IMG/VR virus record: IMGVR_UViG_2751185958_000017
Source: a virus
Taxonomy: Duplodnaviria > Heunggongvirae > Uroviricota > Caudoviricetes
DNA: 23,829 nt
Strand: one strand, 5' to 3'
The translations under genes were made by a program, and so were the position numbers. Position 1 is the stretch's first letter; every line of letters begins with the position of its first letter. Below the pieces are notes generated by a model. That model searched no databases. It worked only from the letters and a program-made list of their open reading frames with translations, and had not been told where the DNA came from. Positions 4,656-23,829 of this stretch are shown here, piece by piece.

Positions 4656-5003
4656 TCAACTCACAGGGATGGTTAACGAAAGTGGCTGGCCGGTGTCGTT
4701 GTGCTGACCGGTTAACGTGACCGTCATTCGCCCGTCAAAACTGCGCGCCGTGGTGACGGATGACAGGGTGACGCGGGGTTCCCATTTCAGCACTGCCATG
4801 TAACAGGCGACCTTAATCTGCAACTCAAGCGCCGGGGTCTGCGGCTGGTCAATCATTGATGCCAGCAACGAGCCGTAATCACGACGCATCACCCGTGAGC
4901 CGACCGGTGTGCGCAGGATATCGCCGATACTCTGGCTGATATGCTCAAGGTCAGTGACCGTCAGGCCATCACTGCGATTCATTCCGAGATAACGCGCTGT
5001 CAT
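4656..5003 (-). CDS. W: Baseplate assembly protein W (P2 W homolog; gp25-like)
   Basis: 115-aa ORF, same length as P2 W; start overlaps the V stop. Confidence 0.85.
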   Translation of the reverse strand: MTARYLGMNRSDGLTVTDLEHISQSIGDILRTPVGSRVMRRDYGSLLASMIDQPQTPALELQIKVACYMAVLKWEPRVTLSSVTTARSFDGRMTVTLTGQHNDTGQPLSLTIPVS

Positions 5004-5629
5004 AGAGGACTCCCGGTTGTGCCGCCGCTGTCGCCGGGGTGTTTATGGGTATGCAGTACCTTCCCGTTTGATGAAAGTTCACCGCCGGTGTGTTCAATGT
5101 TGCCGCGCATCGTCCCGCCCTTCTGCACTTCCAGCGTGCCGGTAATCAGCTTGTTGGTGCAGACCACCTCCGGTGTGTCCAGGGTGACGCGGGTTGATGC
5201 TTTCACCATGACCACCGGCACCGTGGCAGTAACAGAATCAGAAGCCGTCACGCTGGCCGTTTTAATTCCGCTTACCGTGAGTGCACTGGTTTCAGGTTCA
5301 TACTCAATCACCGCCCCGTCAGGGAAACGGATATGCAGGGCATCCGCCGACGCCGACGGCGCGGGGTTATCGCCGGAATAAATCCCCGGCAGAACGAACG
5401 CCGTGTCGAGTTCACCGCCCACGGCCAGAATCAGCACCTGTTCCCCCACGGAAGGTGCCCACCATGTGCGCGAACGACCGGCGCGATGGGTCAGCCACTG
5501 AAGCCAGTCGGTGCACATGCCGCCGGTCTGCACACGGCAGCGACCGGCATTAAGGTCGGTTTCGACGATAATGCCAGTGCGAATCATATTGCGTATAAAG
5601 CGAAGAATTTCATTGTATTGTGCATTCAT
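5000..5629 (-). CDS. V: Baseplate spike/assembly protein V (P2 V homolog)
   Basis: The track ORF 5000..5707 has an internal Met giving MNAQYNEILRFIRNMIRTGIIVETDLNAGRCRVQTGGM..., which matches the P2 V N-terminus as I remember it; start set at the ATG at 5627-5629 rather than the upstream in-frame Met. Confidence 0.82.
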   Translation of the reverse strand: MNAQYNEILRFIRNMIRTGIIVETDLNAGRCRVQTGGMCTDWLQWLTHRAGRSRTWWAPSVGEQVLILAVGGELDTAFVLPGIYSGDNPAPSASADALHIRFPDGAVIEYEPETSALTVSGIKTASVTASDSVTATVPVVMVKASTRVTLDTPEVVCTNKLITGTLEVQKGGTMRGNIEHTGGELSSNGKVLHTHKHPGDSGGTTGSPL

Positions 5630-5647
5630 TCGATAATAATGATTCTG

Positions 5648-5653
5648 TACAAT
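5648..5653 (+). promoter_or_regulatory. Candidate -10 hexamer (TACAAT) for the cargo gene in the V/cargo divergent intergenic region
   Basis: TACAAT about 60 nt upstream of the proposed cargo start; no good -35 found; sequence-only guess. Confidence 0.2.
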
Positions 5654-5715
5654 CTCGAAGTAAATCACACCACGATTTCTGGTGCACAGAACAACAAGGG
5701 ACAACAAAATCCATT

Positions 5716-6852
5716 ATGAGTACTTACTTTTTCTCGTCAGAAACAATGAAAGAATTGTTCAAAGATTATCTGGTCTTTTTGAACACGCTGACTCCCGGCA
5801 CAAACTTTGAATCAAGCAGAAACAAAATAATTGCTCAAGCAATAAACTTCATTTCCGAAAACCCTGAAGATTGGGACAAAAAATCCCAGTACAACATTGC
5901 TATGATTGGCGACACCTTTAAAAGTTTCTTAAGAGAAAAGGGAGAAGATAACAACAGCATCAACCTTATATTCACTTGCTTTTTTAGATTTATCATTGAA
6001 CCAAGCATTCTCTCTCCGGAAATAGAGTCTCACTTTTCACCACTAAGAACCATCAAGGATTTTGCTCTGTATAACTATAATGAATTCGATGAGCGGAGCA
6101 GAGCACAGATAGACTTTTCTCTTAGAGAACTGCCATTAGCAATGGTTAAAGAAGTTTTAAGCTCCAGCAATGTTGACACATATAAAAAATACATTGATAG
6201 TTTAAACGAAGGGCGTCAATTTTTCGAAAAGTGCGACTCCTTCTTAAAGGAGCAACATGCCAAAATAGAGTCAATCAAAGAGTCATTAAAAGGGTATGAG
6301 GTCGCATTTAATTTTGTTGGATTGTTTGAAGGCTTTAATTCACTTGGCAAAAAGAAAGAAAGTGAAATCATGCTATCAAGAATAATTCTTATCATCTTGG
6401 CTATAATCATTCCCTCCCCGCTGATATACTATGGAATGCATAAATTACCAGCTCTCGAAACGACAAATGCTGCCACATATTTTATGTCAGCACTACCTTT
6501 TGCATCAGTTACATTGATTTTCATGTATTACTTTAGAGTTGTACTGCTAAATCATATATCGTTACGAACTCAGATTATGCAAATAGAACTCAGAAAGAGC
6601 CTTTGTCAGTTCATTCAGAGTTATAGCGACTATTCCTCAGAGATAAGGAAAAACAATCCGGAAGCGCTTTCAAAATTCGAAGACGTAGTATTTTCAAACA
6701 TCATGCTATCCGATGATAAGATACCATCTACATTTGATGGCATTGAGCAAATAGCATCGTTAATCAATTCATTAAAAATGGAAAGTAATGATAAAAGGCC
6801 AATAACTGGCCTTTTATTTATTAACATGAAAATTCAAAATAAATTATGCTAA
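5716..6852 (+). CDS. AT-rich cargo gene at the P2 orf30 position: 378-aa predicted membrane protein with two central transmembrane helices; function unknown, candidate superinfection-exclusion or abortive-infection protein
   Basis: Long ORF on the strand opposite the flanking late genes; much lower GC than its neighbours; start chosen at the ATG at 5716 (MSTYFFSSETMKELF...) with a weak aaggga Shine-Dalgarno 14 nt upstream, because the track start at 5620 overlaps the V start; hydrophobic stretches IMLSRIILIILAIIIPSPLIYYGM and YFMSALPFASVTLIFMYYFRVVLL. Confidence 0.7.
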   Translation: MSTYFFSSETMKELFKDYLVFLNTLTPGTNFESSRNKIIAQAINFISENPEDWDKKSQYNIAMIGDTFKSFLREKGEDNNSINLIFTCFFRFIIEPSILSPEIESHFSPLRTIKDFALYNYNEFDERSRAQIDFSLRELPLAMVKEVLSSSNVDTYKKYIDSLNEGRQFFEKCDSFLKEQHAKIESIKESLKGYEVAFNFVGLFEGFNSLGKKKESEIMLSRIILIILAIIIPSPLIYYGMHKLPALETTNAATYFMSALPFASVTLIFMYYFRVVLLNHISLRTQIMQIELRKSLCQFIQSYSDYSSEIRKNNPEALSKFEDVVFSNIMLSDDKIPSTFDGIEQIASLINSLKMESNDKRPITGLLFINMKIQNKLC

Positions 6853-6890: not shown

Positions 6891-7343
6891 CTAACGATTC
6901 AGGTGAGCCAGGATAATCTCTTCAATCATCTGCACATCCTCACCGGTAAAGCCGAGCAGAGGACGCGCCGGATATTCAATTTTCTTACCGTCTTTCCGGG
7001 TTTCTTCCGACAGACCGAACTGATGCACACTGGCTATTTTCGGTGACTTCCCGCCGTAAAACTCCATTGATGCCTGTTCAGGGCTGGCGCGGATATGCAA
7101 AAAACGACTGGTGATAAGTTTCGCAAACATTTTTCGCTTAACGCGACCGGTCTTTTTTCTGGCGCTCTGCTGCTGGCGTGGTGCGTAGGGTGTGCCGTCC
7201 GGGGCTTTCTGTGCCATCACCCGACGCTGCTGACTCTGACGCAGACGTTTCGCCAGTTCGGCGCTCAGTCGCCGACGCCCTGACGGTGACAGCGACTCAA
7301 TCAGTCCGGTCAGCCTGTCTTCAAAACGCTTAAACTCATTCAT
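6891..7343 (-). CDS. S: Tail completion protein S (P2 S homolog)
   Basis: 150-aa ORF, same length as P2 S; position R-S. Confidence 0.85.
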   Translation of the reverse strand: MNEFKRFEDRLTGLIESLSPSGRRRLSAELAKRLRQSQQRRVMAQKAPDGTPYAPRQQQSARKKTGRVKRKMFAKLITSRFLHIRASPEQASMEFYGGKSPKIASVHQFGLSEETRKDGKKIEYPARPLLGFTGEDVQMIEEIILAHLNR

Positions 7344-13085: not shown

Positions 13086-13258
13086 TGTCAGGAGTCCTGA
13101 ATAGTGATTAGAGGAGTCACATGTCGGCATCAGTTTCCCGACGATGCGCATCCTCCGCCATCAGTCCCGGATGGCTTATCACTGACACAACAGCACCTTA
13201 GCGAATCGCGGGGCGCGACTCAGTAGCCTTGCCGTGTATTCATCACGGCGAGGTATTC
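13086..13258. promoter_or_regulatory. Divergent intergenic region between O and P, expected to carry the two Ogr-dependent late promoters
   Basis: Position only: in P2 the O and P operons are driven by divergent late promoters in this gap. I could not identify the activator-binding dyad with confidence. Confidence 0.4.
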
Positions 13259-15031
13259 ATGACCATCACCACAGACACCACTCTTTTACACGACCCGCGT
13301 CGTCAGGCGGCGCTGCTGTACTGGCAGGGATTTTCCGTGCCGCAGATTGCCGCCATGTTGCAGATGAAACGCCCGACGGTGCAGAGCTGGAAGCAGCGCG
13401 ACGGCTGGGACAGCGTTGCCCCCATCAGCCGTGTCGAAATGAGTCTGGAAGCGCGGCTGACCCAGCTCATCATCAAACCGCAGAAAACCGGCGGTGACTT
13501 CAAGGAAATTGACCTGCTCGGACGCCAGATTGAACGACTGGCACGGGTCAACCGTTACAGTCAGACCGGCAACGAGGCAGACCTTAATCCGAACGTCGCT
13601 AACCGCAACAAAGGCGGGCGTCGCAAACCGAAAAAGAATTTTTTCAGTGACGAGGCCATCGAAAAGCTGGAGCAGATTTTCTTTGAGCAGTCTTTCGACT
13701 ATCAGTTGCACTGGTATCGCGCCGGGCTTGAGCACCGCATCCGCGATATCCTGAAATCCCGCCAGATTGGCGCGACGTTTTATTTTTCCCGCGAGGCGCT
13801 GCTGCGCGCCCTGAAAACCGGCCATAACCAGATTTTTCTGTCGGCCAGTAAAACGCAGGCGTATGTGTTCCGTGAATACATCATCGCCTTTGCCCGTCTG
13901 GTTGACGTTGACCTTACCGGTGACCCGATTGTCCTGGGCAATAACGGCGCAAAACTGATTTTTCTCGGCACCAACTCCAACACCGCACAGAGCCATAACG
14001 GCGACCTGTACGTCGATGAGATTTTCTGGATCCCGAATTTTCAGGTACTGCGTAAGGTGGCATCAGGTATGGCCTCACAGAGCCACCTGCGCTCGACCTA
14101 TTTCTCCACCCCGTCCACGCTGGCGCACGACGCCTACCCGTTCTGGTCGGGTGAACTGTTCAACCGGGGACGCGCCAGCGCCGCCGAACGCGTGGAAATC
14201 GACGTCAGTCATAACGCCCTTGCCGGAGGTCTTCTCTGTGCGGACGGCCAGTGGCGGCAGATTGTCACCATTGAGGACGCCCTGAAAGGCGGCTGCACGC
14301 TGTTCGACATTGAGCAGCTCAAACGCGAAAACAGCGCCGACGATTTTAAAAACCTGTTCATGTGTGAATTTGTTGACGACAAGGCATCGGTGTTCCCGTT
14401 CGAGGAGCTGCAACGCTGCATGGTCGACACGCTGGAAGAATGGGAAGACTATGCACCCTTTGCCGCCAATCCGTTCGGCTCCCGCCCGGTATGGATTGGT
14501 TACGACCCGTCACACCGTGGCGACAGTGCCGGATGCGTGGTGCTGGCACCGCCGGTGGTGGCCGGTGGCAAATTCAGAATACTTGAGCGTCACCAGTGGA
14601 AAGGCATGGACTTTGCCACCCAGGCTGAATCCATCCGCAAACTCACCGAAAAATATAACGTCGAATACATCGGTATTGATGCCACCGGCCTCGGTGTCGG
14701 CGTGTTCCAGCTCGTGCGCTCGTTCTATCCTGCCGCGCGCGATATCCGCTACACACCGGAAATGAAAACCGCAATGGTGCTCAAGGCAAAAGACGTTATC
14801 CGCCGTGGCTGTCTGGAATATGACGTCAGCGCCACCGACATCACCAGCTCGTTTATGGCTATCCGCAAGACCATGACCAGCAGCGGACGCATCGCCACCT
14901 ATGAGGCCAGCCGCAGCGAGGAAGCCAGCCACGCCGACCTCGCCTGGGCGACCATGCACGCCCTGTTAAATGAGCCACTCACCGCCGGTATCAGCACCCC
15001 GCTGACATCCACCATTCTGGAGTTTTACTGA
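13259..15031 (+). CDS. P: Terminase large (ATPase) subunit (P2 P homolog)
   Basis: Start at MTITTDTTLLHDPRRQAALLYWQGFSVPQIAAM... with a gaggt Shine-Dalgarno; 590 aa, the P2 P length; stop overlaps the Q start (TGATG). Confidence 0.9.
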   Translation: MTITTDTTLLHDPRRQAALLYWQGFSVPQIAAMLQMKRPTVQSWKQRDGWDSVAPISRVEMSLEARLTQLIIKPQKTGGDFKEIDLLGRQIERLARVNRYSQTGNEADLNPNVANRNKGGRRKPKKNFFSDEAIEKLEQIFFEQSFDYQLHWYRAGLEHRIRDILKSRQIGATFYFSREALLRALKTGHNQIFLSASKTQAYVFREYIIAFARLVDVDLTGDPIVLGNNGAKLIFLGTNSNTAQSHNGDLYVDEIFWIPNFQVLRKVASGMASQSHLRSTYFSTPSTLAHDAYPFWSGELFNRGRASAAERVEIDVSHNALAGGLLCADGQWRQIVTIEDALKGGCTLFDIEQLKRENSADDFKNLFMCEFVDDKASVFPFEELQRCMVDTLEEWEDYAPFAANPFGSRPVWIGYDPSHRGDSAGCVVLAPPVVAGGKFRILERHQWKGMDFATQAESIRKLTEKYNVEYIGIDATGLGVGVFQLVRSFYPAARDIRYTPEMKTAMVLKAKDVIRRGCLEYDVSATDITSSFMAIRKTMTSSGRIATYEASRSEEASHADLAWATMHALLNEPLTAGISTPLTSTILEFY

Positions 15032-16065
15032 TGAGCAAGAAAAAAGGGAAAACACCGCAACCTGCGGCAAAAAAAATGACCGCCAGCGCCCCGAAAATGG
15101 AGGCATTCACCTTTGGTGAGCCGGTGCCGGTACTCGACCGCCGTGACATTCTGGATTACGTCGAGTGCATCAGTAACGGCAGATGGTATGAGCCACCGGT
15201 CAGCTTTACCGGTCTGGCAAAAAGTCTGCGTGCTGCCGTGCATCACAGCTCACCGATTTACGTTAAACGCAATATTCTGGCCTCGACATTTATCCCGCAT
15301 CCGTGGCTTTCCCAGCAGGATTTCAGCCGCTTTGTGCTGGATTTTCTGGTGTTCGGTAATGCGTTTCTGGAAAAGCGATACAGCACCACCGGTAAGGTCA
15401 TCAGACTGGAAACCTCACCGGCAAAATATACCCGCCGTGGTGTGGAGGAGGATGTTTACTGGTGGGTACCGTCCTTCAACGAGCCGACACCTTTCACGCC
15501 CGGCTCCGTATTTCACCTGCTGGAGCCCGATATTAATCAGGAGCTGTACGGCCTGCCGGAATATCTCAGCGCCCTTAACTCTGCCTGGCTGAATGAATCG
15601 GCCACGCTGTTCCGCCGCAAGTATTACGAAAACGGCGCACATGCCGGATACATCATGTACGTCACCGATGCCGTGCAGGATCGCAACGATATCGAAATGC
15701 TCCGCGAAAACATGGTGAAGTCGAAAGGCCGCAACAACTTTAAAAACCTGTTTCTCTATGCCCCACAGGGGAAAGCCGACGGCATTAAAATTATCCCGCT
15801 CAGTGAAGTGGCAACGAAGGACGATTTTTTTAATATCAAAAAAGCCAGCGCCGCTGACCTGCTGGACGCGCACCGCATCCCCTTTCAGTTGATGGGCGGC
15901 AAGCCGGAGAACGTCGGGTCGCTGGGCGATATTGAGAAAGTGGCAAAGGTCTTTGTCCGCAATGAGCTTATCCCGCTACAGGACAGGATCCGCGAGATAA
16001 ACGGCTGGCTCGGCCAGGAAGTCATCCGCTTTAAAAACTACTCACTGGACACTGACAACAGCTGA
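15031..16065 (+). CDS. Q: Portal (capsid vertex) protein (P2 Q homolog)
   Basis: 344-aa ORF, same length as P2 Q, adjacent to cos as in P2. Confidence 0.9.
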   Translation: MSKKKGKTPQPAAKKMTASAPKMEAFTFGEPVPVLDRRDILDYVECISNGRWYEPPVSFTGLAKSLRAAVHHSSPIYVKRNILASTFIPHPWLSQQDFSRFVLDFLVFGNAFLEKRYSTTGKVIRLETSPAKYTRRGVEEDVYWWVPSFNEPTPFTPGSVFHLLEPDINQELYGLPEYLSALNSAWLNESATLFRRKYYENGAHAGYIMYVTDAVQDRNDIEMLRENMVKSKGRNNFKNLFLYAPQGKADGIKIIPLSEVATKDDFFNIKKASAADLLDAHRIPFQLMGGKPENVGSLGDIEKVAKVFVRNELIPLQDRIREINGWLGQEVIRFKNYSLDTDNS

Positions 16066-16235: not shown

Positions 16236-16254
16236 GTGCTTTCCCCGCCTCGCC
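16236..16254. other. cos site: 19-nt cohesive-end sequence of P2-type phages
   Basis: GTGCTTTCCCCGCCTCGCC is the reverse complement of GGCGAGGCGGGGAAAGCAC, which I recall as the P2 cohesive end; location between Q and the A-proximal region fits the P2 map. Confidence 0.8.
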
Positions 16255-16469
16255 CGCCCGCTTTATGGGTCGGTTTTAATGCAGGTGCACGAATACACCG
16301 GAGGCGCGCCGGCACTGGTGGCGCTCAGACGCAACAGGGGAGGAAAACGCATGCAATTGAATGCATTTCTAGGCACACCTAAAAATGAAAAAATGTTATG
16401 ACAATTAATCATTTTAAACACACTGATTAAGGGTAGAATTCTCCTAGTAAAATCATAGAAAAACCGCTA

Positions 16470-17399
16470 TCAAACCAGGCTTTTGCCTTGCTTCATTTTT
16501 TTAGATGAGTCTAAAAATTTGAAATTATCATTAGATGAAAATATTCTTTCTGCGGTATGCCGAATGACTGAAGTATTGAAGACCGCAGCCTGCTCCTCAT
16601 TACAACTGAATACACCCTCATGACCATCAAACTCGCCCGCCAAAAGAAGGTTTTTTGATACTGGGAACAAAACTAAAGTGTCTTTTACACCAAACCCGGG
16701 GGAATAAGGGCCTCGTGCTAATTCAGGATTAGTCCACATTAAGCAAACTGGGTTATCTGAAGTTATAAATGACCCTTGCCCATCAGATATGGTCATAAGT
16801 GACCAGTTGCGTTGATGCAACAACTTGGTGATAACAGGTACACATTTCATTTCCATATCTATCATGAACTCTCTGATTACATTGATTTCGAAATTATCCC
16901 CATCCACAAAATTTTTAATTTTTTCGTAAGCGAGATCATATGGCAAAGACTCACCCATTTCTTTCTCATAAGCTAATTTGCAATCGTCCCAACGCTCAGC
17001 CGAACTAACTGAGGATTTCATGATAAACTTTGCTATTTGTTTCAATGGAGATGATAAATGTTCTCGCTGAGCAGGCGTACGTATTGCCAATAAGGAAATA
17101 AACTCCAGAATAACATCTTTGGTTTCGCCTGAAAACTCGCCCCCCTCCTCAAGTTTTCTTAAATGAGTAGCGACACTGCCTTCAAACTCTGCAAGAGAAC
17201 TCTCGAGATAGTTTGGGTCAACTCCATCCAATTCTAATCGGTTGAAATCTCTAACCCCCCCGACATTGCGAGTATTACTCTCAAAGGTTTTGCGCTCCTT
17301 TAAATCTATTACAGTTAATTTTGATTTTTTCCCCCCATTACTTGTAAACCCTTTCAAATAACATTGGGATAAAAAATGATGATGCCTTGCAACACTCAT
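16470..17399 (-). CDS. AT-rich cargo gene at the P2 tin/old position: 309-aa DUF4238-like protein; candidate phage-exclusion protein
   Basis: Sole gene between cos and A, where P2 carries orf91/tin/old; start at MSVARHHHFLSQCYLKGF... with a ggag Shine-Dalgarno; the N-terminal HHxxxQxYLKxF motif resembles the conserved N-terminus of DUF4238 proteins as I remember it; GC well below the flanking phage genes. Confidence 0.7.
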   Translation of the reverse strand: MSVARHHHFLSQCYLKGFTSNGGKKSKLTVIDLKERKTFESNTRNVGGVRDFNRLELDGVDPNYLESSLAEFEGSVATHLRKLEEGGEFSGETKDVILEFISLLAIRTPAQREHLSSPLKQIAKFIMKSSVSSAERWDDCKLAYEKEMGESLPYDLAYEKIKNFVDGDNFEINVIREFMIDMEMKCVPVITKLLHQRNWSLMTISDGQGSFITSDNPVCLMWTNPELARGPYSPGFGVKDTLVLFPVSKNLLLAGEFDGHEGVFSCNEEQAAVFNTSVIRHTAERIFSSNDNFKFLDSSKKMKQGKSLV

Positions 17400-17502
17400 A
17401 CTCAGCTCCGTTATGGCTATAATCGCATAAATAATAAGCACTTATATTGCAATCATCTAGTTAAATACACAATATTTATGACTCCGAAATTTCATTAAAT
17501 CA

Positions 17503-19674
17503 CTATTGATAGGTTTTACCAATTAGTGCCAGCTCGAAATGGATGCGTGGAATCTGCGAACGTTCAGCCTTTGTCATCCGCCCTGATGGCGCTATCTGGT
17601 ACGGTTTTAATGGTTCGCAGTTTCTTTGTTGCCAATTCGGTCTCGGTGCACCATGTTTTAATGCACTCCTGAGCACCGTCACAACTTCCGGGTCATCCCA
17701 TCCGATAACACCACTATCAACCAGATTTAACACCGCTGCGGCATGCTCAGACGGTGTAGGGTGCATAACCGGAACGTCACCGCCGGTGAACTTTCCACAG
17801 TTATTGACAGGACTCCGAGGCGCGGCGATGCCGCTTTTTAAAGTCAAAGGCTCAACGACCGGCACTTTCGGCACAATGCGCCAGTCCGTCGTTCTGGTGA
17901 TATGAATATGACGCGCGCCGAGATGCGGCGCGTAAATGCCGACCACTCTCTCGACTTCTTCCTCGTACTCGTTAACTTCATCCGACGGGCTACGGGCGAC
18001 CCTGACAGTCTGACAATCGCGCGGGACATTTGCCCCACCCTGCGCGCTGATATACAACGCAAAATCACCACTGTCTGCGGCGGCGCGAGCAGCCTCGACG
18101 CGCTCGTCAAACTCATCAGCAATGCTGACGCCGCGCGGCAATTTGCGTAGTTCACGGTAAGCCCCCATTGTCGGCAGACCAACCGTTTTAAATTGTGGGA
18201 TGCGCCACGTTGACGCCCATGCGGTAACAGCCGCGGCAGTATCTTTAAGCGGCTTACCGGTATCGTTATCGAGCTGACCATCCAGTGCATAGCCGTCGAT
18301 ATTTTTTGAGATGTATTTCGCGATATACCCCGCAGCACCGCCCCGGTTAAGGTGTTTCGCCTGAAAACGGTTTCGCGCAGCTCCTCTTTCGTCGCCATCC
18401 TCTTTGAGCGCATAGCGACGCATGATTTCGATAATCTGGTTACGCTGGCGCGGATTACAAAAAAGCATCATATGCCAGTGCGGCGTTCCGTCGTGGTGTG
18501 GCTCGACGACACGCAAACCGTAGACCTGTAAATCATTATCCTTGAATGCCGTGCGCATCAGGCTCCAGATACGGCAGAGATAACGCTGCGCATCCTTTGG
18601 ATTAAATGCCTCATCGTTCCAGCCGTGATTTAGCTGGACGGTTTTACTTTCGCCTTTTCTGACCTGACGTGTCGGGTGATACTTTGACGGCGCGGTCAGC
18701 GTGATAAACATCCCCACATCACCCTCTGCTGCGGCGTAACGCTCAATACCGGCAATGGTGTTCATCAGCTCCATCCGGCGAATTTCAGGATTAGAAATAC
18801 TGCCCATCACCTTACTGATAAGGTCGATGCGCTCGCCGGTTTCCCTGTTTTCAAGGTCACATGATTTAAGAAATTCCAGATTTGCCTGGCGGCGCGCACG
18901 CACATCACGAATGGCATGTTTACTGGCATAAGGAGAACGGTCTTTATTGACCTCCCCGACAGCTATCAGTAACGCCTCATGCCAGCGCATACGCTGGCCT
19001 TTAAGCTGATGAGTCCACCACTCATCGTTAAACAGGCGGGCAATGGCAGAATATGCCTGCCTCGTGGTCATCTGTCCTTTACGGTATTTTTTCCAGTAGA
19101 GCGGGGAAATATTGAAAGCACGTGCAGCGCCAGCAACATGACCATAAAGGTGAGCCTGCGCCTCATCCGTAAACAGCGATTCTTTTTCGCCATGTGCATC
19201 AACCCAGGCATCGCAGAGTTCCTCATACATCATGAAAAGCTGCGATGAGATACGGGCAGCAAACTTTTTCAGCTCCTTGTCATTCATTCCCGGCAGGCGC
19301 GCATAGTGGTCACGCTCTGCCAGAAACAGCAACGACGCGTCGGTGTTCATTTCATGGCGCTGATTCACACGCTCAATGCGCGGCCATAAACGACGCTGAA
19401 AAGTGGATGTGAGGAAATAAAACCCGTGCACCGGGCTTTTATTGCGCCGGATGTAGTCATAACGTGAAGTAAACAGCGAGCGCAAAAAGTAAGGCAGGCG
19501 GTTAATCGTGGATAAAACACCTTGCACCTGACGCATCTCGTCACGTGTAAGGGGTCTTTCGCGCCCGACAGCCTCGCGTGGCGCGTTCCATGCATAAGCA
19601 CCGGTAAACGTCTTACCGGTGCCTGCGGCAAATGCTGACGGAGGGACAAAACGCCCGGAGGCTTTAACGGCCAT
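17503..19674 (-). CDS. A: Replication initiation protein, rolling-circle endonuclease (P2 A homolog)
   Basis: Start set at MAVKASGRFVPPSAFAAGTGKTF... (the P2 A N-terminus as I recall it) with a gagg Shine-Dalgarno, not the upstream Met of the track ORF; about 723 aa; contains VVEPHHDGTPHWHMMLF, a HUH-type metal-binding motif. Confidence 0.88.
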   Translation of the reverse strand: MAVKASGRFVPPSAFAAGTGKTFTGAYAWNAPREAVGRERPLTRDEMRQVQGVLSTINRLPYFLRSLFTSRYDYIRRNKSPVHGFYFLTSTFQRRLWPRIERVNQRHEMNTDASLLFLAERDHYARLPGMNDKELKKFAARISSQLFMMYEELCDAWVDAHGEKESLFTDEAQAHLYGHVAGAARAFNISPLYWKKYRKGQMTTRQAYSAIARLFNDEWWTHQLKGQRMRWHEALLIAVGEVNKDRSPYASKHAIRDVRARRQANLEFLKSCDLENRETGERIDLISKVMGSISNPEIRRMELMNTIAGIERYAAAEGDVGMFITLTAPSKYHPTRQVRKGESKTVQLNHGWNDEAFNPKDAQRYLCRIWSLMRTAFKDNDLQVYGLRVVEPHHDGTPHWHMMLFCNPRQRNQIIEIMRRYALKEDGDERGAARNRFQAKHLNRGGAAGYIAKYISKNIDGYALDGQLDNDTGKPLKDTAAAVTAWASTWRIPQFKTVGLPTMGAYRELRKLPRGVSIADEFDERVEAARAAADSGDFALYISAQGGANVPRDCQTVRVARSPSDEVNEYEEEVERVVGIYAPHLGARHIHITRTTDWRIVPKVPVVEPLTLKSGIAAPRSPVNNCGKFTGGDVPVMHPTPSEHAAAVLNLVDSGVIGWDDPEVVTVLRSALKHGAPRPNWQQRNCEPLKPYQIAPSGRMTKAERSQIPRIHFELALIGKTYQ

Positions 19675-22232: not shown

Positions 22233-23246
22233 ATGGCAATCAAAAAACTCGATGATGGTCGATATGAAGTGGACATCCGCCCTACTGGACGTAACGGAAA
22301 ACGCATCCGTAGGAAGTTTGATAAGAAAAGCGAAGCTGTCGCTTTCGAAAAATACACGTTGTACAACCACCACAATAAAGAATGGCTATCAAAACCAACA
22401 GACAAACGACGTCTGTCGGAACTGACACAGATCTGGTGGGATTTAAAGGGTAAACACGAAGAGCATGGGAAATCTAATCTTGGAAAAATTGAAATCTTCA
22501 CAAAAATAACGAATGACCCATGCGCATTTCAAATCACGAAATCCCTTATCAGCCAGTACTGCGCCACCCGAAGAAGTCAGGGTATTAAACCTTCGAGTAT
22601 CAATCGTGATTTAACATGTATTAGCGGCATGTTTACAGCCCTGATTGAAGCGGAGTTATTCTTTGGTGAGCACCCTATCAGAGGGACAAAGAGGCTTAAG
22701 GAGGAAAAACCAGAAACAGGCTATCTCACACAGGAAGAAATTGCCTTACTGCTTGCAGCACTTGACGGCGACAATAAAAAGATTGCGATTCTTTGCCTGA
22801 GTACAGGAGCACGTTGGGGAGAAGCAGCTCGTTTGAAAGCAGAAAATATCATCCATAACCGCGTCACGTTTGTTAAAACGAAAACAAACAAACCACGCAC
22901 CGTCCCGATCTCAGAGGCTGTTGCCAAAATGATCGCGGATAACAAACGAGGTTTTTTATTCCCTGATGCTGATTACCCTCGCTTCAGACGAACAATGAAA
23001 GCAATAAAACCGGATTTGCCAACGGGGCAAGCCACACATGCACTAAGGCACAGCTTTGCCACTCATTTCATGATTAATGGAGGAAGTATTATCACGCTAC
23101 AACGGATACTAGGTCACACGCGGATTGAGCAAACTATGGTTTACGCTCATTTTGCGCCAGAGTACCTTCAGGACGCCATTTCTCTTAATCCGCTAAGAGG
23201 TGGTACTGAGGCCGAGAGTGTCCACACAGTGTCCACAGTAGAGTAA
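22233..23246 (+). CDS. int: Integrase, tyrosine recombinase (P2 Int homolog)
   Basis: 337-aa ORF, the P2 Int length; ggaggg Shine-Dalgarno; C-terminal catalytic motifs (R...HALRHSFATH...LGHTRIEQTMVYAHF with the tyrosine nucleophile); adjacent to the att core. Confidence 0.9.
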   Translation: MAIKKLDDGRYEVDIRPTGRNGKRIRRKFDKKSEAVAFEKYTLYNHHNKEWLSKPTDKRRLSELTQIWWDLKGKHEEHGKSNLGKIEIFTKITNDPCAFQITKSLISQYCATRRSQGIKPSSINRDLTCISGMFTALIEAELFFGEHPIRGTKRLKEEKPETGYLTQEEIALLLAALDGDNKKIAILCLSTGARWGEAARLKAENIIHNRVTFVKTKTNKPRTVPISEAVAKMIADNKRGFLFPDADYPRFRRTMKAIKPDLPTGQATHALRHSFATHFMINGGSIITLQRILGHTRIEQTMVYAHFAPEYLQDAISLNPLRGGTEAESVHTVSTVE

Positions 23247-23511: not shown

Positions 23512-23829
23512 TCACTCTCCACATTTGAATGTCAGACGAGCGACACCATGTAATCCTACACCTTCTGTCTTCAGCTCAACTATTTGCATTTTTTTGCCCT
23601 GAGTAACACAGAAATGAGTTGCATCATTTTTTACTATATTTTCTGCACCAGATATTCTACCCCTGGCTAAAGAAGCTTCGGCTTCGGTGTAGTATTGGTT
23701 ATCGAGTTTACGCTGAATATTACTTTTATATGCAAGACCAAATTTACCGATACTTGTCTCATCATTATGCACAGCACAACCAGATATAAGAAAAACACTA
23801 GTTAATGATATAGCAGCTATCTTTTTCAT
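23512..23829 (-). CDS. Host-encoded small lipoprotein (105 aa), outside the prophage
   Basis: Complete ORF starting at the last codon of the window; MKKIAAISLTSVFLISGCAV has a signal peptide and lipobox; AT-rich. By synteny with the E. coli P2 attachment locus this could be yegR, but I do not recognise the sequence itself. Confidence 0.6.
   Translation of the reverse strand: MKKIAAISLTSVFLISGCAVHNDETSIGKFGLAYKSNIQRKLDNQYYTEAEASLARGRISGAENIVKNDATHFCVTQGKKMQIVELKTEGVGLHGVARLTFKCGE

Follow-up and report, generated by a model that had tools for sequence, protein, structure and literature searches.

An intact allele of the single-gene anti-phage system Rst_DUF4238 in the A–cos hotspot of a P2-like prophage

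In P2-like prophages, the region between gpA and gpQ is a hotspot for anti-phage systems, according to Rousset, Depardieu et al. (2022); it also hosts non-defence cargo, for example, partition systems and cytolethal distending toxin (PMC9122126). [quoted passage not shown] In Table S5 of the same paper, the protein WP_001515549 is entered as "DUF4238" cargo of the P2 hotspot (PMC9122126).

The DNA analyzed here is a stretch of 23,829 nucleotides (IMG/VR virus record IMGVR_UViG_2751185958_000017), hereafter the window, with an ORF located at 16470..17399 on the minus strand. According to the annotation of 100%-identical DNA in the genome of E. coli NZ_CP062901.1, the protein encoded by this ORF is WP_001515549.1. 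Comparison of the window protein with the protein of pFR101 showed 284 identical residues of 309 (92%) without gaps, both proteins being 309 aa long. All 25 differences lie outside the conserved columns of the family alignment, and most of them are conservative. The window gene is an already known defence gene, a 92%-identical allele of which was validated against T7 in 2022. An earlier examination of the same DNA made from the letters alone (the sequence-only reading) had called the gene a strong single-gene defence candidate, which understated the case, given the strong protection against T7 provided by the 92%-identical hotspot allele (PMC9122126).

The window represents a P2-like prophage that shows 96.7% identity to P2 across 80% of the window length. 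The genes around the hotspot follow the order terminase P (13229..15031, plus strand), portal Q (15031..16065, plus strand), cos, the DUF4238 gene, and gene A (17503..~19674, minus strand). The portal gene, recognized by its ORF and by the annotation of identical loci, flanks the hotspot beyond cos. The right-hand hotspot boundary is marked by the P2 cos 19-mer GGCGAGGCGGGGAAAGCAC, found as a single exact match at 16236..16254 (minus strand) and assigned with the help of the P2 cosR annotation; the chance expectation for such a match in the window is 0. Gene A, which encodes the replication endonuclease, was identified as an ORF corresponding to the 2172-nt gene annotated in phage pro483 and in E. 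coli, and is 93.6% identical to P2 A in the BLASTN program. The DUF4238 gene lies downstream of gene A on the same strand and is separated from it by a spacer of 103 bp.

Comparison with the right end of P2 (28500-33593) in the BLASTN program showed that P2 homology ends at the window position 17541 and returns at 16283. The cassette between these points (16284..17540, 1,257 bp, GC 0.39) has no P2 homology and stands for P2 positions 30168..33545 (3,378 bp), a segment that, according to the P2 annotation, contains the 3′ end of A together with orf91, tin, and old. The sequence-only reading had placed the gene in the tin/old hotspot next to cos and had counted a single gene there. Both points were borne out, as the cassette takes the place of orf91-tin-old in the segment from A to cos and the DUF4238 gene is its sole substantial ORF. 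The repeats detected in the cassette were just short two-copy chance matches, and a search of the Rfam database over the whole window gave no match. The recombination junction of the hotspot falls within gene A: the swapped cassette takes in positions 17503..17540 and thereby supplies the final ~13 codons of the window A, and about 150 nt of the 3′ end of P2 A have been exchanged.

In addition, a second AT-rich cargo gene was observed in the window. It is a 378-aa ORF located at 5716..6852 (plus strand, GC 0.35–0.39) between the baseplate gene V (5000..5707, minus strand) and the tail-completion gene S (6891..7343, minus strand), in the orientation opposite to both. This ORF occupies the site of the non-essential P2 Orf30, to which it has no detectable homology. 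The encoded protein has two predicted transmembrane segments (residues of about 218–240 and 259–280) and matches phrog_9373 (unknown function), with no PADLOC match and no significant Pfam match. Among 5,426 complete E. coli genomes, 60 contain this ORF; homologues with an identity of 36–38% occur in P2-like Yersinia phages. As an uncharacterised gene and a candidate for either a moron or a defence function, it arguably offers more novelty than the DUF4238 gene. Another ORF, 23512..23829 (minus strand), is situated beyond the integrase gene (22233..23246, plus strand) and runs off the window end. Its product carries a lipoprotein-type signal MKKIAAISLTSVFLISGCAV, and the ORF probably belongs to the host DNA that flanks the prophage, immediately beyond the attachment site.

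The DUF4238 gene consists of 309 codons and a stop codon, extends from ATG to TGA without internal stops, and encodes a protein with the N-terminus MSVARHHHFLSQCYLKGF. The length, the position, and the N-terminus are as had been read from the sequence, and the uninterrupted ORF gives no sign of a frameshift or a pseudogene. The AT-richness remarked on earlier was also evident: the GC content of the gene is 0.391 and its GC3 is 0.358, compared with 0.53 and 0.54 for gene A and 0.51 for the whole window. An alternative GTG start at 17441 would give a protein of 323 aa. The sequence data support the ATG at 17399 as the start, since the Shine-Dalgarno motif GGAG (17406..17409, minus strand) precedes it by 6 nt and the homologues in the alignment all begin at the same Met, with the pattern M-x-x-A/S-R-H-H-H. 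According to the pairwise alignment, the Shine-Dalgarno stretch TAACGGAGCTGAGTATG is identical in the pFR101 clone. No transmembrane segment was predicted in the protein (the highest 19-residue hydropathy is 1.09), which is probably soluble and cytoplasmic.

As for the upstream region, pairwise alignment with pFR101 revealed a 31-nt block TCATAAATATTGTGTATTTAACTAGATGATT at 17451..17481 (minus strand) that is identical to that of the functional clone, and the intergenic sequences flanking it diverge. A scan of the 103-bp spacer between A and the DUF4238 gene for consensus sigma-70 promoters gave no site on the strand of the gene. The block may serve the DUF4238 transcription unit as an operator or as a promoter of non-canonical type, since pFR101 is active under its native promoter. 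The gene points in the same direction as the early operon, which is repressed; its expression in the lysogen would be driven from a promoter in the spacer, because the homologous upstream region sufficed in pFR101.

According to the search in the Pfam database, the window protein matches the DUF4238 family (PF14022) with 135.1 bits and an E-value of 4.2e-39 at a gathering threshold of 27 bits; residues 7–291 align with positions 2–280 of the 281 in the model, and no other Pfam family was matched at E up to 1. The PADLOC defence profile PDLC03000 ("DUF4238-Pers") gave an E-value of 1.5e-219 and 725.5 bits, with residues 1–309 aligned with positions 1–309 of 309. Both profiles confirm the resemblance to DUF4238 proteins noticed in the translated sequence. 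The protein was also assigned to phrog_29785 (function unknown), and the search with it in NCBIfam matched no model. In DefenseFinder the system is named Rst_DUF4238, and "Pers" denotes a custom profile. The name Rst_DUF4238 is confirmed in a 2024 preprint, which states that the system is not assignable to any known domain family.

A relationship with Tin, which the sequence-only reading had left possible, was ruled out: the best BLASTP segment between the window protein and Tin (253 aa, Table S2 copy) scored 17 bits with an E-value of 0.37. Ruled out, too, was an Old-type ATPase/TOPRIM nuclease, in agreement with the earlier view, as a regular-expression search found no Walker A or Walker B motif and no ATPase or TOPRIM family was matched in Pfam.

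A tblastn search showed that the window protein is 100% identical to gp11 (YP_009211908.1) of Escherichia phage pro483. The DUF4238 locus is present in 14 of 5,426 complete E. coli genomes at a nucleotide identity of at least 99.7%, and at least 1,000 contigs, originating from several Enterobacteriaceae, encode exactly the same protein. The gene at 16470..17399, as defined by its ORF, the PF14022, PDLC03000, and phrog_29785 matches, and the tblastn match to pro483, is with high confidence an intact allele of Rst_DUF4238 (PADLOC "DUF4238-Pers"), a known anti-phage system consisting of a single gene. By analogy with pFR101, it can be expected, again with high confidence, to protect the lysogen against T7-type phages as accessory prophage cargo. 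The 25 substitutions relative to pFR101 could alter the specificity of the window allele.

The family to which the protein belongs is large. A profile search among 1.84 billion representatives found 7,906 DUF4238 proteins with E-values of 1e-3 or lower, of which 855 had E-values of 1e-30 or lower, with family representatives counted at 50% identity. Nearly all of them are single-domain proteins of 300–335 aa. Gene neighbourhoods were surveyed in 46 loci, namely, eight contexts examined directly, with homologues showing 44–51% identity, and 38 loci taken from one genome per species, for which the two nearest ORFs on each side yielded 143 neighbour proteins. No conserved partner gene was found across the 46 loci, and the commonest flanking Pfam family occurred in just 3 of the 143 neighbours. 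In many cases the adjacent genes were those of other defence systems or of mobile elements.

The directly examined homologues were found in varied surroundings. In a Vibrio prophage, the homologue adjoins a KAP NTPase and HicAB; in an E. coli integrative element, it is accompanied by serine recombinases, RadC, a DUF927 primase, and type I RM/GmrSD; in Pseudomonas, it stands beside a Gabija-like pair of OLD-TOPRIM and UvrD; in an E. coli prophage, it occurs with YafO, and in Vreelandella, near Mrr_cat. In a Bathymodiolus symbiont (L013, 4862..5934), the AbiJ_NTD5 and Abi_C genes immediately precede the DUF4238 gene and share its strand, and in Citrobacter (L014, 4478..5824) putAbiC takes the equivalent upstream position, with a NOV_C protein adjacent. 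The DUF4238 gene could be paired facultatively with Abi genes in some lineages. In the 38-locus set, PARIS AriAB, Thoeris ThsA/ThsB, DRT, Dpd, Uzume, and other defence proteins were found at single loci, and many of the genes flanking distant homologues are housekeeping genes. Since no Pfam family recurs in more than 3 of the 143 neighbours, the DUF4238 gene is a self-contained unit that circulates among mobile elements and defence islands and has no fixed partner.

The structure of the window protein was modeled using the AlphaFold2 program on the basis of 40 homologues (pLDDT 89.7, pTM 0.86). The model is a confident one and comprises a short N-terminal segment with a hairpin, a helical bundle (residues 64–195), and a beta-rich C-terminal half (residues 198–304). 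Comparison of the model with the PDB in the Foldseek program found no solved relative (best E-value 0.18), so that no known nuclease or hydrolase fold was recognized, and both sequence and profile searches of the PDB with the protein were empty.

Conservation was scored on 72 sequences with an identity of 27–42% to the window protein, in which secondary Pfam signals amounted to noise alone. Residues H8, Y14, F18, R112, W199, G235, G255, and N275 are invariant in all 72 members. At least 90% conservation was observed for H7, L15, F52, E66, E73, R107, P109, E183, L194, R197, F211, D215, P217, L220, T241, and P246. Eleven polar residues are invariant or conserved at this level (H7, H8, Y14, E66, E73, R107, R112, E183, R197, D215, and N275), and they are distributed over all three parts of the chain. 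Known nuclease and related motifs were sought in the alignment by eye and rejected: for HEPN (Rx4-6H), the spacing R107..H114 fits, but H114 is not conserved; for PD-(D/E)xK, D215 is conserved, but a conserved ExK is lacking and K249 is variable; for HNH and HUH, the N-terminal HHH lies outside a beta-beta-alpha or H-hydrophobic-H context.

A literature search found no mechanistic study of the DUF4238 system, including on abortive versus direct action. We tentatively propose, at less than even odds, that the protein is a latent self-contained cytoplasmic enzyme, probably metal-dependent, which is triggered by T7; this model is suggested because the eleven conserved polar residues, spread over the three chain parts, suit a catalytic centre at a domain interface. 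A single DUF4238 polypeptide would both sense and act, and the eleven residues would form one catalytic centre, probably metal-dependent. The enzyme would be harmless in uninfected cells; pFR101 was maintained in MG1655, which indicates that DUF4238 is not constitutively toxic. A T7-specific product or state would then activate the protein, and the activated form would destroy or modify a nucleic acid or nucleotide substrate, halting the infection, probably at the cost of the infected cell (abortive outcome).

It is possible, though short of probable, that such proteins constitute a new class of defence enzymes with an unsolved fold, a centre composed of His-His/Tyr, Glu/Glu/Glu/Asp, and Arg residues, and a T7 cue, and that the same module is reused in a TIR system as a recognition or co-effector part. 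If this is true, the window allele and the tested allele, being 92% identical, make a ready pair for mapping the determinants of specificity.

Among the alternatives, an unlikely one is a non-catalytic blocker of the Tin type, which would stoichiometrically bind and poison a T7-specific protein or complex, such as T7 RNA polymerase or the machinery for replication or packaging, with the conserved residues upholding a binding groove and not chemistry. The P2 tin gene, which the DUF4238 cassette replaces, acts by direct interference. A blocker would also agree with the failure to detect a catalytic fold or motif in DUF4238 and with the narrow protection by pFR101, which covers T7 only among eight phages. 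However, the eleven near-invariant polar and charged residues persist over ~7,900 representatives from many phyla, which would be unusual for a surface tracking one fast-evolving phage protein, and the hosts of most DUF4238 homologues are not hosts of T7.

The protein could also be a sensor only that signals to a host-encoded or co-resident effector, which appears rather improbable. A validated E. coli TIR system is reported to have a DUF4238 domain, and the TIR catalytic residues are required there (PMC11350192). DUF4238 placed beside a TIR effector fits the role of a sensor at least as well as that of an effector. On the other hand, pFR101 works as a single gene in K-12 MG1655, and no partner is conserved in the 46 loci; the effector would therefore need to be a universal housekeeping protein.

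Still less probable is an inactive window allele, or one with another target range, that is, cargo without anti-T7 activity. The 25 amino-acid differences from pFR101 would allow this, as would the only partly conserved upstream region, with its different far-upstream sequence. Against it, the ORF is intact, no conserved column is altered and the changes are mostly conservative, the sequence is kept at a nucleotide identity of at least 99.7% in the 14 complete E. coli genomes, and the protein recurs on at least 1,000 Enterobacteriaceae contigs and in phage pro483. Finally, a lysogenic-conversion or phage-physiology gene with the T7 phenotype as a side effect might be imagined from the partition systems and cytolethal distending toxin in the P2 hotspot and from the housekeeping genes that often flank distant homologues, but it is very improbable, as homologues repeatedly adjoin Abi, Gabija, Thoeris, PARIS, and DRT genes in prophages and integrative elements, and P2 lacks the DUF4238 gene, which is dispensable for the phage.

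With a protective Rst_DUF4238 gene retained as the best explanation, the correct recognition of both the defence gene and the hotspot from raw sequence makes this locus a positive control. The biological addition is small and consists of one more natural Rst_DUF4238 allele in a P2-like prophage. The large family, the lack of a conserved partner, and the lack of a solved structural relative support the status of a self-contained system, and the list of conserved residues supplies concrete targets for mutagenesis.

Among other described systems, the TIR and DUF4238 system (Nat Commun 2024, PMC11350192), which shares the DUF4238 domain, needs the TIR NADase, whereas the window gene has neither a TIR domain nor a TIR neighbour. 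The sole viral structure match found in the Foldseek program (E-value 6e-11) was gp44 of Smp131, a P2-like Stenotrophomonas phage (Peduoviridae). This very distant protein, annotated as DUF4238 (L015, 30939..31835), has 14% identity to the window protein in the structural alignment and comes from a phage of a different host; its gene lies in the accessory region between the integrase and the portal side. Since gp44 is located in an accessory region of Smp131, DUF4238 cargo recurs in Peduoviridae that infect different hosts. The gp44 gene adjoins that of an SOS-response-associated peptidase.

The old and tin genes of P2 share with the window DUF4238 gene the hotspot and the role of a prophage gene excluding unrelated phages, and no homology exists between the window protein and either Tin or Old. 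Transcription of the P2 genes starts at a promoter near cos and proceeds towards A, in contrast to the window gene, which is read in the same direction as A. The targets also differ, being lambda and T-even phages for old and tin and T7 for DUF4238 (pFR101).

In phage pro483, gp11 is placed, like the window gene, between A (gp10) and portal (gp13). Because the second cargo ORF, located at the Orf30 site of the window, is missing from pro483, the window belongs to a P2-like prophage other than pro483. The prophage of NZ_CP062901.1 has both cargo genes, the DUF4238 gene and that of the Orf30 site, about 10.6 kb apart, and is one candidate for the prophage of the window. The closest functional counterpart is Rst_DUF4238 of pFR101, which, like the window gene, is a single gene encoding 309 aa in the A–cos hotspot of a P2-like prophage, a setting that belongs to the founding member and is not obligatory for the family; the ribosome-binding site and the 31-nt upstream block are identical in both, and the sequence farther upstream differs.
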